From positions 33,975 to 97,974 of the forward strand of contig JAZLAV010000018.1 of NCBI GenBank assembly GCA_045613315.1: 64,000 bases of DNA, given 5' to 3'. This document shows, one piece after another, positions 42,646-48,759 of the stretch. The translations under genes and the position numbers were made by a program. Positions within the stretch are counted from its first letter, which is position 1; each line of letters starts with the position of its first letter. The notes beneath the pieces are model-generated. The model ran no database searches, had not been told where the DNA came from, and was given only the letters and a program-made list of their open reading frames with translations. The stretch comes from Candidatus Enterousia sp. (GTDB lineage Bacteria > Pseudomonadota > Alphaproteobacteria > Rs-D84).

Positions 42646-42945
42646 TTATCGCGTGCGCAGCATTCGTACGTCGTCAAATTCGGGATACATTCCAAACATT
42701 GTGCGTGCCGTTGGACACAGTGGTAAAACATGCCGATGTTGTTCGCGGGCAATATCACATACGCACCGCACCAGGTTTAATTCCACATCACCACCGCGGT
42801 ATGCATCGTCGACTTCGGTATGGTCGATAATTACAGTGTTTGGCCCGGTGCGAACAAATGTTATTTTGCCGATAACATGTCCGCCGATGTATGCGAAAAA
42901 TCCGTTGCCGTTCGGAAAAGGTATATATTTGATTTCGTTTGCCAT
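42646..42945 (-). CDS. small GNAT-like N-acetyltransferase (about 100 aa, Acetyltransf_CG-like)
   Basis: MANEIKYIPFPNGNGFFAYIGGHVIGKITFVRTGPNTVIIDHTEVDDAYRGGDVELNLVRCV... The start was moved to the internal ATG. Confidence 0.4.
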   Translation of the reverse strand: MANEIKYIPFPNGNGFFAYIGGHVIGKITFVRTGPNTVIIDHTEVDDAYRGGDVELNLVRCVCDIAREQHRHVLPLCPTARTMFGMYPEFDDVRMLRTR

Positions 42946-43037
42946 AATCCCCCCCCATTTACGGCAAATCATAGCACTCGTTTTTCATAATATAAATATG
43001 ATTGTATGCAAATAAAACGGGGCGTTTGCCCCGTTGA

Positions 43038-43973: not shown

Positions 43974-44104
43974 TTTTAATTTCCCCCTGTTAAATAACAT
44001 TATATCACAAACGCAAAAAAAAGTTCGCATAATTTGTAAAAAGCACTTGCGACGAATAAAATATATTTTCTATAATCCAATTACAAAGCAAAGGAGAAAC
44101 ACAC

Positions 44105-44584
44105 ATGAAAACATTATCAACACTTTTTGCGGCATGCGGGATTGCATTTGCGGGTGCTGCGTCGGCTGCGAACATCACAATTTATTATTCCCCGACATGT
44201 CCACATTGTCATCACGCGCGTGAATTTATTTCCAGCACACTGATTTATGAATATCCAAATTTGACGGTCAGTGAAGTTAACGTTTTCGATGAATCGAACA
44301 ACAAAATGTTTTCGGATGCGTTAAAGAAATGTGAATATGAATCTGGTGGCGTGCCGGTGTTGGTTGTCGGCGAAAAATGTTTCCAGGGCTATGCCGATTT
44401 TATGCAGGGCGAATTACGCGAAGCGGTCGAGGCTGACTTAAGCGATGCAGATAAAGCAACCGCCGCCGAAAACAAAAAGGCATTAGAAGAAAACGCAGAA
44501 AAATTTAAATCAGAACACGCAGACAGGGCAAATGCCATTTCTGAATACAAGTCAGCATCAGACGATGCGGCAAAAAAAAAATAA
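44105..44584 (+). CDS. periplasmic thioredoxin-fold protein with CPHC active site (DsbA/glutaredoxin-like)
   Basis: Signal peptide MKTLSTLFAACGIAFAGAASA, then ...YYSPTCPHCHHAREF..., then an acidic low-complexity tail. The gene ends in GCA AAA AAA AAA TAA (an A10 tract). Confidence 0.6.
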   Translation: MKTLSTLFAACGIAFAGAASAANITIYYSPTCPHCHHAREFISSTLIYEYPNLTVSEVNVFDESNNKMFSDALKKCEYESGGVPVLVVGEKCFQGYADFMQGELREAVEADLSDADKATAAENKKALEENAEKFKSEHADRANAISEYKSASDDAAKKK

Positions 44585-44693
44585 CGGTGGTTCGACCATT
44601 TGGTTCTATGGATTACTGGTTGTTTTGGTCGCGGGACTTGGGTTCGTCTTGTTAAAAAAAGACAATAAAAAATAATGTTGGGTAAAACAAACA

Positions 44694-45467
44694 ATGTTTG
44701 ATTTAACGACACTGGATTATATATACATCATCGTGGTTTTGGTTTCGACCATTTGGGCGACAATGCGCGGTGGTGTATATGAAACCATTGCAACATTGTC
44801 ATGGGTGATTGCGGCGGTGACTGCACGGTTTGCGTCGCCCATTTTGGACGGTTGGTTACAGGATTGGTTCAAATTGTCTGAATCAACGGTTGGGACATTG
44901 GTTGCGTCGTATTTTGTTGTATTTTTTGTGATATTGATAACTGTCGGGTTCTTTAACCAAAAATTGCGCGACAAAATCCAGGACAGCATTATGAACCTTA
45001 CCGATAAAACACTGGGGGTGATTTTTGGTATTGTTCGTGGTGTTGTTGTAATGGGGGTCGTGTATTGGGGTGCGTTGTGGTATTATTCCGATGCACCACG
45101 TTTGCCGCGGTGGTTGGATATGTCGCGTATGCGTCCCGTTATGCACACGACGGCGGAATTGTTGGACAAATGGTTTATCCCGGGGACCGAAAACAGGTTG
45201 TTGGCACGCGATCGTGTCGGAATGGAAGAAAAGATGAAGATTTATAATAATCTTATCAACCCGGCCGTATCTGACCGTCCCGCAAACACCGCGTCGGGCG
45301 AACGTTCGGGTGCGGACGCACCAAAGAAGCCGGCCGAAGAACCGGCGGAAACTGGATATAAAACATCGGAACGCACTGCATTGGAAAATCAGTTAATGCA
45401 AATTGAATCCGCAGCCAAGGCGGCAGAGGCACGCGAGTCCGCCAATCAGGGCGACCAAAACGATTAG
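44694..45467 (+). CDS. cvpA: CvpA-family membrane protein (colicin V production protein homologue)
   Basis: DYIYIIVVLVSTIWATMRGGVYETIATLSWVIAAVTARFASP... matches the CvpA N-terminus; 4 TMs; and a C-terminal low-complexity extension. Confidence 0.7.
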   Translation: MFDLTTLDYIYIIVVLVSTIWATMRGGVYETIATLSWVIAAVTARFASPILDGWLQDWFKLSESTVGTLVASYFVVFFVILITVGFFNQKLRDKIQDSIMNLTDKTLGVIFGIVRGVVVMGVVYWGALWYYSDAPRLPRWLDMSRMRPVMHTTAELLDKWFIPGTENRLLARDRVGMEEKMKIYNNLINPAVSDRPANTASGERSGADAPKKPAEEPAETGYKTSERTALENQLMQIESAAKAAEARESANQGDQND

Positions 45468-45649
45468 TCGTTGGTTGCAAAGATAAATAAAAACCACCGT
45501 CCGTATGGGCGGTGATTTTTGTTGGGTATTGCGGAATGTGTATTATGATAAAAATATGCAAAACAATCGTTAGAAAAATTTTTGTAAAAAATCACGCAAG
45601 TGGGGCACAATCATTGCCGAGTTTTTGATGTGGTTTTTAATATTCAACA

Positions 45650-46290
45650 AATTATTTGACGGCGACAATCACAAACGCGGGTAATCCCCATCCAAAATTT
45701 TGTATTTCCCGCCCGCGGCGGAGTGTCACGAAGTGACGGGGTGGGTATTCGGTGTCGTTTGTTCCGATGAACGGTTGGAACCCTCCCCGCCCTGCGAGCC
45801 ATCCCCTCCGATGGAGGGGAATTATTCTCTGGGCCCAGTTTCCAGAAAAACGCAATGCGTTTCCCAGGCCCCCGTTTCATTTTGTCATTGCGAGCAAAGG
45901 GTACCCACAAAATGCAACGCATTTTGCGGGGGCCGCCGGCGAAGCAATCCAGTCAATAGTGTATGGGCGTTCCGCTCACGGCTTTATTACACCCTGGATT
46001 GCCGCGGTCGCTACGCTCCCTCGCAATGACAAAGCCGCCACCCACCCACCAAACAAAATTATTCCCTTTTGGGTTTTCTGTGTTATAATGAGTATTGAAT
46101 CCAATGGGAATTGGGTTCGGGCTGTGGTAAGCCTACAAAAATCCGGTGCAAAAGCATCGTAATCTGATGTTTTTCGGTGCCTTTTGCACCGTTATACATC
46201 CCCGATTGTTTGGTCGGGGAACAGACTTGATTTTTGGTCTTTACCACTCCCCGACCGCTTTTCCTTTGGCGGTCTTTTTCTTTATAACCA
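45650..46290. repeat. GC-rich, palindrome-dense non-coding island
   Basis: About 640 bp that is markedly GC-richer than its flanks, with no coherent ORF. There are at least 10 short perfect or near-perfect hairpins: gtcacgaagtgac, cccctccgatggagggg, aaaacgcaatgcgtttt, cgccggcg, ggtgcaaaag..cttttgcacc, ccccgattgtttggtcgggg, gaccgcttttcctttggcggtc. Also a distant inverted pair tgtcattgcgag (about 45888) and ctcgcaatgaca (about 46021). Confidence 0.55.
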
Positions 46291-46301
46291 ATGGAACAAA
46301 C

Positions 46302-47348
46302 ATGGCAAATGTACATTTTGATAACGCAAAACGTAATAAAAACGATGAGTTTTATACTTGTTATGAGGATATCGAAAAAGAATTAAATCACTATGCCAAG
46401 TATTTCAAGAACAAGGTGATTTATTGCAATTGCGATGACCACGCGGGAATTGGGCTGGGAACACCAAAATCAAACTTCCTTAAATACTTTGCCGATAATT
46501 TTGAGGCATTTGGCATTAAAAAAGTAATCGCCACCCATTATGAACGCGATGGCGCATCCACAATGTATGTGTTGGACCACGATAACACCGGCGATGGTAT
46601 TATTTGCAGCGAGGATATAGAAGAAATACCATTAAAGAGTAATGGCGATTTTCGTTCGCCCGAGTGTATTGAATTGTTAAAAACCGCGGACATCGTAATT
46701 ACAAACCCGCCATTTTCGTTGTTTGGTGAGTATGTTGCGCAACTAATGGAATATAAAAAGAAATTCATAATTATTGGTAATGATAATTGCCGAACCTATA
46801 AAGATATATTCCAATTGATAAAAGGTAACAGATTCTGGAGTGGATATAATCATGTAAAAAAATTTGTAAAACCAGATGGGGAAATACAGCAGTTCGGTAA
46901 TGTTTCTTGGTACACAAATATACCAACAATACGACGTAATGAAAAGATAGAAACCGGTAAAAAATATTACGGATACGAAAGCATGTATTCCCAATACGAA
47001 AATTACGATGCAATAAATGTCAATAAGACGGACGATATCCCAATGGACTATGACGGCGTAATGGGCGTACCTATTACTTTTATTGATAGGTACAATCCAG
47101 AACAATTTGAAATTGTTGCCTTGGGTATAGTTGGTAGTTGTAATTTTACTAGTAATAAAAAAATGGAAATTTTGGACAAACAAGGCAACAGGACGGGTAA
47201 ATTTACATTTAATGCAAAGGGAACGTTGTACAGGAAATACAACCCAAACAATCCGAAAGATAACCCCGCCTTTGTAGATGTTGAAACAGGACAATTGTAT
47301 TCCAGCATTTATGCGCGAATTTTAATCAAAAAGAAAAAGGGGAACTAA
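46302..47348 (+). CDS. N6-adenine DNA methyltransferase, EcoRI-methylase-like family
   Basis: MANVHFDNAKRNKNDEFYTCYEDIEKELNHYAKYFKNKVIYCNCDD... and motif IV NPPF (ITNPPFSLF). The ORF-track ATG at 46146 lies inside the GC-rich island; the start was reset to the ATG at 46302. Confidence 0.7.
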   Translation: MANVHFDNAKRNKNDEFYTCYEDIEKELNHYAKYFKNKVIYCNCDDHAGIGLGTPKSNFLKYFADNFEAFGIKKVIATHYERDGASTMYVLDHDNTGDGIICSEDIEEIPLKSNGDFRSPECIELLKTADIVITNPPFSLFGEYVAQLMEYKKKFIIIGNDNCRTYKDIFQLIKGNRFWSGYNHVKKFVKPDGEIQQFGNVSWYTNIPTIRRNEKIETGKKYYGYESMYSQYENYDAINVNKTDDIPMDYDGVMGVPITFIDRYNPEQFEIVALGIVGSCNFTSNKKMEILDKQGNRTGKFTFNAKGTLYRKYNPNNPKDNPAFVDVETGQLYSSIYARILIKKKKGN

Positions 47349-47349
47349 T

Positions 47350-48549
47350 ATGGTGATGAAGGCAAAGTTGTTTGATACATTAACCGTTCGGCAATTGGTC
47401 GATGGTTACCGCGATTCCGGCGACAACGGTGTTGTTGCGTTTGGTGGAAAACTTAATGTGCGACCCGCATTCCAACGCGAATTTATTTATACGCCACGTG
47501 ATAGAGACATGGTTATGAAATCGGTTTATGATAATTTACCGTTAAATGTTATGTATTGGGCACGCAACCCCGATGGCACATTTGAAATTATTGATGGACA
47601 ACAGCGCACAATTTCCATATGCCAATTTATCACGAACGATGATGGTTATGGCAATCCAATCGCAATTAACTTTGATGGTCGCCGAACGCAAACATTTAAT
47701 CAAATGTCACCGGAAAAACAGCGCGAAATATTGGACGAATATAAATTAATGGTCTATGTTTGCGATGGCACCGAAGACGAAAAATTGGAATGGTTCCATA
47801 CCATAAACATTGCCGGCAAAGTGATGGAGGAACAAGAATTACTAAATGCCGACTATACGGGAACATGGCTGACATCGGCCAAGGCGTTCTTTTCCAAAAA
47901 AGACAACAATCCCGCATTGAATTATCGGTATTATGACAACGACCGAAAACACAGTTTAATTGCACTTAACGCCGATGATGCCAATCGCCAGGCGTTACTG
48001 CATTTGGTGTTGGGGTGGATTGTGGACGGCAACCCCAAATTATATCCGGAAATAAAAAACTATATGTCGATTCACCGCGCAGACGAAAATGCAGATGAAT
48101 TGATAAATTACTATAAATCGGTTGTTGATTGGGTGCACGATGTGTTCGGTGAAAAATACTATAACGAAATGCGCGGGTTGCCGTGGGGATTAATCTTTAA
48201 TAAATATCGATATGGTAAATATGACCAATCGGTTATGGCACGCGCGGTCTCGGGACTGATGGCAGACGAAGAAATACAAAACAAACGTGGCATTTTCGAG
48301 TTTCTGTTTGATATGAACCAAAAACACCTGAACCTGCGGCAATTTGATAACGCAACCAAACGCACAATTTATCAAAAGCAGGCCGGCATTTGTCCGTACT
48401 GTGCCAACACGGAAAACGCAAACAAAGTGTGGAAATTCGAGGAAATGGAGGGCGACCATATTATGCCGTGGTCCCAGGGTGGCAAAACCATTCCAGAAAA
48501 TTGCCAAATGTTATGCAAACATCATAACAGGGCAAAAAGCGACAATTAA
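47350..48549 (+). CDS. DUF262 (ParB-like, DGQQR) domain fused to C-terminal HNH endonuclease
   Basis: EIIDGQQRTISICQF is the DUF262/GmrS-type motif. The C-terminal CPYCANTEN...EGDHIMPWSQGGKTIPENCQMLCKHHNRAKSDN is a classic HNH. The ATG is 2 nt after the MTase stop, so the two are translationally coupled. Confidence 0.7.
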   Translation: MVMKAKLFDTLTVRQLVDGYRDSGDNGVVAFGGKLNVRPAFQREFIYTPRDRDMVMKSVYDNLPLNVMYWARNPDGTFEIIDGQQRTISICQFITNDDGYGNPIAINFDGRRTQTFNQMSPEKQREILDEYKLMVYVCDGTEDEKLEWFHTINIAGKVMEEQELLNADYTGTWLTSAKAFFSKKDNNPALNYRYYDNDRKHSLIALNADDANRQALLHLVLGWIVDGNPKLYPEIKNYMSIHRADENADELINYYKSVVDWVHDVFGEKYYNEMRGLPWGLIFNKYRYGKYDQSVMARAVSGLMADEEIQNKRGIFEFLFDMNQKHLNLRQFDNATKRTIYQKQAGICPYCANTENANKVWKFEEMEGDHIMPWSQGGKTIPENCQMLCKHHNRAKSDN

Positions 48550-48580
48550 AAAACACCGCCCGAATGGGCGGTGCTTATTT
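48550..48580 (+). terminator. rho-independent terminator
   Basis: caccgcccgaatgggcggtg + cttattt. Confidence 0.65.
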
Positions 48581-48583
48581 CCT

Positions 48584-48658
48584 GGTGCCAGTTGTCGGAC
48601 TTGAACCAACGACCCTCTGATTACAAATCAGATGCTCTACCAGCTGAGCTAAACTGGC
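48584..48658 (-). tRNA. tRNA-Thr (anticodon UGU)
   Basis: The reverse complement is GCCAGTTTAGCTCAGCTGGTAGAGCATCTGATTTGTAATCAGAGGGTCGTTGGTTCAAGTCCGACAACTGGCACCA. The anticodon loop TTTGTAA gives UGU, and CCA is encoded. Confidence 0.8.
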
Positions 48659-48759
48659 GTTTAATGCAACGCATATATTACATTGTTGTTTTCTAAATAT
48701 CAAGTGTAAAAATTCATAAATTACTTGCAAATATAAAATAACGGTTAAAAATACATATT

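Follow-up and report, generated by a model that had tools for sequence, protein, structure and literature searches.

What does a bacterial gene encode when its stop codon directly follows a run of ten adenines, and when another reading frame through that run leads into a membrane anchor? This question is raised by a gene for a small secreted protein with a CPHC active-site motif, located in a 64,000-nucleotide (nt) stretch of Candidatus Enterousia sp. (GenBank assembly GCA_045613315.1, contig JAZLAV010000018.1, positions 33,975 to 97,974 of the forward strand), the whole of which is called the window below and supplies the numbering of all positions. An earlier reading of these letters (the original prediction) had described an A10 homopolymer at the stop codon of this gene, with a transmembrane (TM) tail appearing when one A is removed and a non-hydrophobic tail when one is added, and all three features are indeed present. 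What was then a single-gene oddity is a family-wide signal, which is also found in orthologues carrying the tail in frame. The arrangement probably reflects programmed recoding at the tract, most likely by slippage of RNA polymerase, which would give a soluble and a membrane-anchored isoform of the same protein.

A conserved A-tract in front of a membrane anchor

The 3' end of the gene (44105-44584) reads ...GAT GCG GCA AAA AAA AAA TAA, and its product of 159 amino acids (aa) is identical to P0004 in a public protein collection. The A10 is the longest homopolymer of the window (GC 43%), the runners-up being three A8 and four T8. Removing one A (-1A) yields a 189-aa product ending in ...AAKKNNGGSTIWFYGLLVVLVAGLGFVLLKKDNKK (stop at 44673-44675), and adding one (+1A) yields a 183-aa product ending in ...KKKITVVRPFGSMDYWLFWSRDLGSSC and a stop, with a non-hydrophobic extension of 24 residues. 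A -1 ribosomal shift in the window would give ...KKKITVVRPFGSMD... and not the anchor, which lies in the +1 frame. The predicted junction peptides of the anchored product are ...DAAKKNNGGST... for -1A and ...DAAKKKNNGGST... for +2A or a -2 ribosomal shift.

With the fused (A9) protein as query, 1214 homologues were retrieved, mostly of 187-200 aa and with the hydrophobic tail in frame. Twelve distinct homologues are exactly 159 aa long and 82-89% identical to the window protein, and all end in ...AKKK and a stop as it does. At the DNA level we compared 80 GTDB species representatives, 68 metagenome loci and 8 targeted contigs (a total of 146 unique sequences), whose hosts are uncultured gut and rumen Alphaproteobacteria of Candidatus Enterousia or the order Rs-D84. 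Tract lengths and frames were read from consensus assemblies and represent the majority allele of each sample.

An unbroken run of A8-A11 occupies the junction of linker and TM helix in 132/146 unique orthologues. It is A9 or A10 in 130 of these 146 (61 and 69 sequences, respectively), A8 and A11 occurring in a single sequence each and 14 sequences having no long run. All lysine codons at the tract are AAA (236/236), compared with 72% of those in the cytoplasmic tail and 74% of those in the rest of these genes, and the KK dipeptides of neighbouring genes are written AAAAAA in 51% of cases only. The flanks of the gene (517 kb from 81 related genomes) contain four A/T runs of at least 9 on either strand, all of them terminator U-tracts or intergenic, and no further coding-sense A run of at least 9 was found in the long open reading frames (ORFs) of these flanks. 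The exclusive use of AAA and the lack of such runs in the flanks show that the tract is not a by-product of a lysine-rich protein in an AT-leaning genome. In the aligned flanks it remains invariant while the synonymous sites beside it vary freely. The A10 is thus far beyond chance, and it is a genuine feature, conserved beyond amino-acid sequence and codon usage.

Fourteen loci have lost the A-run and still carry the anchor in frame (L033, L034, L047, L062, L067, L069, L072, L109, L116, L120, L127, L128, L015 and L132; e.g. ...AEKGGNSTIWFW..., ...ADNKGNSTIWFW...). As several lineages keep an in-frame anchor without the run, a switch at this site would be dispensable in some species.

The TM tail is in frame in 103/146 unique sequences and out of frame in 29. 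The clade of the window, here called clade A, comprises at least 13 distinct sequences (WIN, L031, L039, L056, L060, L086, L095, L096, L103, L107, L111, L123 and L147), includes four separate GTDB species representatives and spans at least four GTDB species. Every member reads GCA AAA AAA AAA TAA and needs -1A or +2A to reach the anchor, and the clade is monophyletic in a neighbour-joining tree save for one nested in-frame revertant, L081. Other, independent shifted lineages fall in two groups: 1) those needing +1A, all with A9 (L133/L135, L137, L138, L145 and L139/L142/L143/L148); 2) those needing -1A (L134 with A8, L144 and L152/L153). Cluster look-ups added another shifted lineage (P0183/P0185) and a sporadic +1A variant (P0162). 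The zero-frame stop follows the tract at a distance of 0-1 nt in nearly all lineages that are stably shifted.

The tails of clade A are stop-free and differ by insertions and deletions (indels) in multiples of 3 only. In pairwise Nei-Gojobori comparisons within the clade, the ratio of nonsynonymous to synonymous substitution rates (dN/dS) of the tail is 0.147 in the TM frame (dS 0.95) and 1.25 and 1.29 in the two control frames, the upstream domain having a value of 0.113. Variable sites of the clade A tail number 13, 8 and 26 at codon positions 1, 2 and 3 (of 30 each), and the smaller shifted clades have TM-frame values of 0.25-0.30. This purifying selection, seen in the TM frame only, shows that the out-of-frame tail is translated. 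The original prediction had taken the tail for a membrane anchor and had counted a lack of conservation in orthologues among the observations that would refute its reading; the tail proves to be conserved, standing in frame in most orthologues and being under purifying selection where it is out of frame.

A complementary signal comes from the in-frame orthologues, in which a hidden stop is conserved. One extra A (+1A, equivalent to a -1 shift) puts a stop 0-1 nt past the tract (T-GA, T-AA or T-AG) in 91/103 in-frame sequences with a tract of at least 9, the background chance of a stop at the first -1-frame codon being 0.061. Because the stop is so close to the tract, the +1A product would be a clean anchorless protein ending in ...KKK or ...KKN. 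This product matches what the window gene encodes in its zero frame.

Two groups of related sequences differ in frame or tract length in ways of their own. Among three related metagenome sequences, with the tract at about 1952-1972 of each locus, L133/L135 (A9) need +1A and L134 (A8) needs -1A or +2A; none is in frame, and the in-frame state of this lineage (A10 or A7) was not seen. L152/L153 (gene 401-883, shifted) and L154 (gene 401-1003, in frame) belong to one protein cluster at 90% identity and both have A10, the extra base lying just upstream of the run (GAT GAA TCA A9.. in L152/L153 vs GAT GAT GAA A8.. in L154). This suggests that the length of the tract was restored or held at 10 while the frame changed.

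Proposed slippage of RNA polymerase and its alternatives

We propose that the A10 is a selectively maintained recoding site between the secreted CPHC domain and the C-terminal TM anchor. In the lineage of the window, standard decoding would end at the TAA and give a soluble periplasmic protein of 159 aa, and in a minority of expression events the effective tract length would change by -1 (or +2), giving a membrane-anchored isoform of 189-190 aa. Most orthologues would have the opposite polarity, with the anchored form in frame and a +1A slip leading to the hidden stop and an anchorless product. The slipping enzyme would be RNA polymerase, on an rA:dT hybrid of 9-10 nt, perhaps aided by a nascent-RNA hairpin abutting the tract. 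We infer that the tail is joined to the domain by recoding, that the event is transcriptional and that its purpose is to set the ratio of soluble to anchored protein. The earlier suggestion that slippage yields soluble and tethered isoforms is therefore supported, and as to the route (transcriptional, ribosomal or through changes in the DNA) the comparisons favour an event at the RNA level.

Slippage by RNA polymerase is favoured because the tract matches the length of the hybrid, because ribosome sliding is weak at this length, because no stimulators of programmed ribosomal frameshifting (PRF) are seen, and because different lineages need slips in opposite directions. The bacterial polymerase slips efficiently on 9 A/T, which equals its RNA:DNA hybrid of 9-10 bp (PMC5009743). 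Its slippage in A/T runs is dominated by single-base insertions, rising exponentially with run length, and deletions are rarer (PMC5574713); that the hidden stop lies in the +1A frame agrees with such insertion-dominated slippage. In the protein, the tract sits in a disordered segment just before the TM helix, as seen in an AlphaFold2 (AF2) model of the orthologue P0001 (Table 1).

The potential hairpin at the 5' edge of the tract could bear on the direction of slippage. A hairpin ending 0-2 nt before the run is possible in 13/13 clade A members, with a mean z of -1.84 as against -0.40 in 91 in-frame sequences (Mann-Whitney p = 2e-4 on z, 0.06 on raw energy), and it is no better than shuffled sequence in 3/13 of the clade A members. 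It is suggestive, and we treat it as a lead and not as a finding. Folded as a single sequence, the window RNA from 44540 to 44700 has a minimum free energy of -40.9 kcal/mol (z -3.9), a low value that is due in part to pairing of the A10 with U-rich Leu/Val/Phe codons of the TM helix, a pairing unsupported by the clade alignment.

Several points weigh against slippage by RNA polymerase as the source of both isoforms. Clade A needs -1A or +2A, and deletions are the rarer outcome, so that the anchored isoform might be scarce in this clade or otherwise made. Neither compensatory pairs nor covariation were found for the upstream hairpin in clade A, and no other conserved RNA structure was detected by RNAalifold (12 clade A sequences, -8.1 kcal/mol, covariation term -0.36). 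The counts and tests given here treat related sequences as independent, and the tree is a simple neighbour-joining tree. Finally, two pairs of close relatives differ in tract length: L155 (A11) and L156 (A10) are identical at 812/812 positions apart from the tract, and L124 (A9) and L045 (A10) are 98.6% identical. Such pairs show that tract length can also change in the DNA itself, or else that it is sometimes assembled wrongly.

These pairs lead to the possibility of phase variation, in which slipped-strand mispairing would maintain coexisting and switching subpopulations with A9 (anchor ON) and A10 (anchor OFF). Homopolymers of 9-11 nt are replication-slippage hotspots, and besides the two pairs L133/L135 (A9) and L134 (A8) differ in length. 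Against this, the frame state is clade-specific, all of the at least 13 diverged clade A sequences having A10, and about 30 near-identical pairs agree in tract length as read from consensus assemblies. A10 also stands on 9 contigs of a single clade A species, which were taken from independent samples and include two strains about 1% apart. No near-identical full-length twin of any 159-aa protein occurs among the top 120 database hits, the nearest being at most 88% identical, so that the OFF proteins are without an ON twin there. The tract is confined to 9-10, unlike typical contingency loci, and the shifted L152 and the in-frame L154 both have A10, so their difference in frame lies outside the tract. 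Judged from the majority alleles in these assemblies, the tract pattern does not look like that of a fast-switching contingency locus, and we consider phase variation quite unlikely as the explanation. L155 and L156 are contigs of about 812 nt from different ENA samples (ERZ27297720 and ERZ28633383), in which the anchored protein of 191 aa is cut down by the extra A to a truncated form of 161 aa; either the DNA has truly slipped, or one of the two contigs was mis-assembled.

Isoforms could also arise in translation, from uniform mRNA, by ribosomal frameshifting on the A-run. This would take the form of -1 PRF on A_AAA_AAA in the in-frame and +1A-requiring lineages, and in clade A the adjacent TAA would provoke the P-site tRNA-Lys to shift by +1 or -2. 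The sequence A_AAA_AAA belongs to the classical slippery heptamers, as in E. coli dnaX (PMC5009743), the stop that lies 0-1 nt past the tract in the stably shifted lineages could stimulate a shift if slowly decoded, and a -2 slip would re-pair perfectly on AAA. The phase of the heptamer suits a dnaX-type -1 shift in the in-frame and +1A-requiring lineages only, and does not do so in the window. Moreover, seven A's would suffice for such a shift, yet the tract is held at 9-10; there is no Shine-Dalgarno (SD)-like motif in the aligned flanks and no conserved downstream structure; the opposite directions among lineages would need two ribosomal mechanisms; and sliding of the E. coli ribosome on poly(A) is weak at A9/A10, becoming robust at A11 (PMC4363877). 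Frameshifting thus seems an unlikely source of the isoforms.

The remaining explanations are far less probable. A long homopolymer with a single surplus base is a familiar result of error or mutation. The original prediction had allowed for a sequencing error, and the gene would then be an A9 gene; equally, the anchor might have been lost and its tail be decaying, as the junk tail of the sporadic variant L124 illustrates. At least 13 diverged sequences share this A10 and TAA, as do 9 contigs from a single species, and the arrangement recurs in independent projects, assemblers and species. Another 52 sequences have an A10 that was assembled in frame. The tail is intact, its indels are in multiples of 3, and its purifying selection is frame-specific at a dS of about 0.95. 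This recurrence and this selection rule out a sequencing error or a pseudogene, and we give an artefact or decay hardly any credence. It is just as improbable that the tail is an independent translation product, a membrane peptide of about 35-47 aa starting at an internal ATG of the +1 frame (44532 or 44565). Although an ORF from 44532 to 44675 is present in the window and most clade A members have an ATG 7 nt before the tract, this ATG is absent in L056 and L123 and is not preceded by an SD motif, and the same tail is the in-frame C-terminus of 103 orthologues. An independent start was rejected on these grounds, since neither start nor SD motif is conserved and, in the frame-2 lineages, the stretch from the upstream stop to the tract lacks any start codon.

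Programmed slippage by RNA polymerase can be extended to a broader evolutionary scenario, which we find possible but doubtful: an ancient and actively selected slippage switch whose polarity has flipped at least 8 times, each lineage tuning its proportion of soluble to anchored protein through the choice of default isoform, as a counterpart of the soluble and transmembrane glycoproteins (sGP/GP) of Ebola virus. The in-frame lineages would then be mostly anchored, and the +1A-requiring lineages would obtain the anchored form as a common slip product. In clade A the anchored form would be rare, boosted by the hairpin driving forward slippage as in the Roseiflexus IS630 element discussed below.

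The protein and its surroundings

The features of the locus are collected in Table 1. The structure is taken from the AF2 model of the full-length orthologue P0001, which is 87% identical to the window protein (mean predicted local distance difference test score, pLDDT, of 77.7, with 85-94 across residues 23-150). The N-terminal segment has low pLDDT and lies outside the fold, and A19-S20-A21-A22 are invariant among 36 aligned homologues. The Pfam Glutaredoxin match (PF00462) is marginal but above threshold, with 24.4 bits against a gathering score of 22.9. The closest solved folds are small glutaredoxins and thioredoxins, the best Foldseek match in the PDB being cGrx2 (4tr0, E 7e-4); at the sequence level PDB and NCBIfam matches are weak, and the window protein reaches no NCBIfam equivalog cutoff.

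Table 1. Features of the locus in the window, and segments of the AF2 model of orthologue P0001
Feature	Position	Strand	Basis
Sigma-70-like promoter TTGCGA-18-TATAAT	44047-44076		consensus match only
Shine-Dalgarno-like GGAG, 8 nt before ATG	44093..44096	+	read from sequence
Zero-frame gene, 159 aa, secreted glutaredoxin/thioredoxin-fold protein, anchorless isoform	44105..44584 incl. TAA	+	ORF list, Pfam PF00462
Signal-peptide-like N-terminus, residues 1-21, MKTLSTLFAACGIAFAGAASA/AN (...AASA/AN)	44105..44167	+	by eye and AF2 model
CPHC active-site motif, TGT CCA CAT TGT	44198..44209	+	sequence; C-P-H-C-H-H invariant in alignment
Potential nascent-RNA hairpin GCAUC-AGAC-GAUGC and closing pairs, abutting 5' edge of tract	44555..44571	+	
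A10 tract, putative slippage/recoding site at junction of disordered linker and TM anchor	44572..44581	+	sequence and orthologues
Tail ORF, +1 frame (NNGGST, TM helix, KKDNKK, stop), appended after -1A or +2A	44580..44675	+	
Zero-frame TAA directly 3' of tract, counterpart of hidden stop in in-frame orthologues	44582..44584	+	
Transmembrane helix IWFYGLLVVLVAGLGFVLL	44598..44654	+	hydrophobicity scan; AF2 model of P0001
cvpA-like gene (Colicin_V family), 19 nt past tail stop	44694..45467	+	Pfam PF02674
P0001: signal peptide	residues 1-21		AF2 model
P0001: thioredoxin/glutaredoxin fold	residues 23-109		AF2 model
P0001: long helix	residues 114-144		AF2 model
P0001: disordered segment holding KK tract	residues 152-162		AF2 model
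P0001: TM helix	residues 164-185		AF2 model

The alignment shows CPHC-HH, a second Cys pair and a G-V-P loop to be invariant in the family, in keeping with a thioredoxin fold that has its CxxC motif where helix 1 begins and a cis-Pro loop. The window protein is accordingly described here as a putative glutaredoxin/thioredoxin-fold thiol-disulfide oxidoreductase. CPHC is also the active-site motif of E. coli DsbA, and by this analogy an oxidising periplasmic role is plausible. The invariant HH directly after CPHC and the invariant pair C76/C92 (P0001 numbering) are unexplained by glutaredoxin models, and may represent a structural disulfide or a metal site.

The tail of the window protein, with Gly-Gly, a hydrophobic helix and a basic C-terminus, superficially resembles a GlyGly-CTERM/rhombosortase signal, as the original prediction had remarked. 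This resemblance does not hold: neither the tail nor the fused protein matched a GlyGly-CTERM model of NCBIfam at E<=10, and conservation of GG is absent from the family, many orthologues lacking it (e.g. ...KKTAGSSS..., ...KKNNSSIYFY... and ...KKTDSHSS...). GlyGly-CTERM identity is thereby rejected, and the most suitable reading of the tail is that of an ordinary C-terminal TM anchor whose cytoplasmic stub carries positive charge.

The gene is flanked upstream by a divergently transcribed ldh-type dehydrogenase gene and downstream by the cvpA-like gene, an order that is kept in related contigs. No terminator or attenuator was found in the tail region, and Rfam and tRNA scans of the window returned four tRNAs only, none of them near the tract. 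Past the cvpA-like gene, some 680 nt are without convincing ORF or Rfam match, and further downstream lie an EcoRI-type adenine methyltransferase gene (46146-47348), a GmrSD/HNH endonuclease-like gene (47350-48549) and a tRNA-Thr gene (48583-48658, minus strand); the region 45470-48660 looks like a small restriction/defence islet adjoining a tRNA. A second kind of run is found on the other side of the gene, where a C8 on the plus strand (42949-42956) corresponds to a G8 of the small minus-strand GNAT acetyltransferase gene at 42646-42972 (MICRKWGGIMANE...). As this G8 lies between two candidate starts, it may be an SD-like or 5' untranslated region element rather than coding, or another slippery run.

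Relation to known slippage systems

The closest parallel is dnaX of Thermus thermophilus, where slippage of RNA polymerase at A9 leads to mRNAs with additional A's and, with out-of-frame stops nearby, to two functional products (tau and gamma) from one gene; some bacterial dnaX genes have the reversed arrangement, in which a zero-frame stop immediately follows the site (PMC5009743). The Enterousia gene shares with them a run of at least 9 A in a bacterial ORF, an out-of-frame stop that truncates cleanly, and the existence of both polarities. In contrast to Thermus dnaX, the gene encodes a secreted CPHC protein of glutaredoxin/thioredoxin fold, a TM anchor is the part that comes or goes, a single family shows both polarities with the tract held at 9-10, and slippage is deduced from sequence. 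In the editing of the Ebola virus glycoprotein (GP), the polymerase stutters on an A-run, giving a soluble secreted and a transmembrane glycoprotein, and the unedited product is the soluble one (PMC5009743), as the default product would be in the clade of the window. The two systems are unrelated, the viral one involving an RNA-dependent RNA polymerase, a run of 7 nt and a eukaryotic host, and the analogy is functional only.

In Buchnera and Blochmannia, conserved poly(A) tracts about 10 nt long interrupt genes whose expression is believed to depend on infidelity of RNA polymerase (PMC5009743), although no reading-frame-restoring transcription errors were found in Buchnera data (PMC5574713). 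Candidatus Enterousia and Rs-D84 are likewise host-associated bacteria with small genomes (below 1 Mb; PMC12306168). Whereas the runs of Buchnera and Blochmannia are regarded mainly as tolerated damage in AT-rich genomes with many long runs, the Enterousia flanks avoid long runs. The retention of the tract in in-frame orthologues, together with the hidden stop, points to positive maintenance of a two-product design. The Roseiflexus IS630 element has a stem-loop 5'-adjacent to its slippery motif, which causes forward realignment and transcripts lacking one base (PMC5009743). Clade A similarly needs -1A and has a hairpin abutting the tract, but its run is A10 and not the U5C5 motif of Roseiflexus, and its hairpin is short (4-5 bp and closing pairs), weak in 3/13 members and without covariation. 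As in phase-variable loci of Neisseria, Haemophilus and Campylobacter, a homopolymer in the coding sequence of an envelope protein alters the product through its length; unlike in those loci, the state read from the assemblies is fixed by clade, the length is tightly bounded and both products look functional.

We found no prior description of such a site in the literature on Enterousia or on transcriptional slippage with transmembrane or periplasmic isoforms. For annotation, the consequence is that at least 5 GTDB species and many metagenome-assembled genomes list the gene as a truncated hypothetical protein of 159 aa, with its anchor unannotated. The prediction can be tested with existing pairs of rumen and gut metagenomes and metatranscriptomes, and the in-frame, +1A and -1A polarities on the same tract constitute a natural experiment on how the direction and efficiency of RNA polymerase slippage are tuned. 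If true, the site adds a well-supported and phylogenetically deep case to the few productive slippage sites of bacteria (dnaX, insertion sequence elements and type III secretion system genes of Shigella). It would also be the first one in bacteria to recode a membrane anchor, a single gene thereby supplying a diffusible and a tethered periplasmic thiol-disulfide oxidoreductase.

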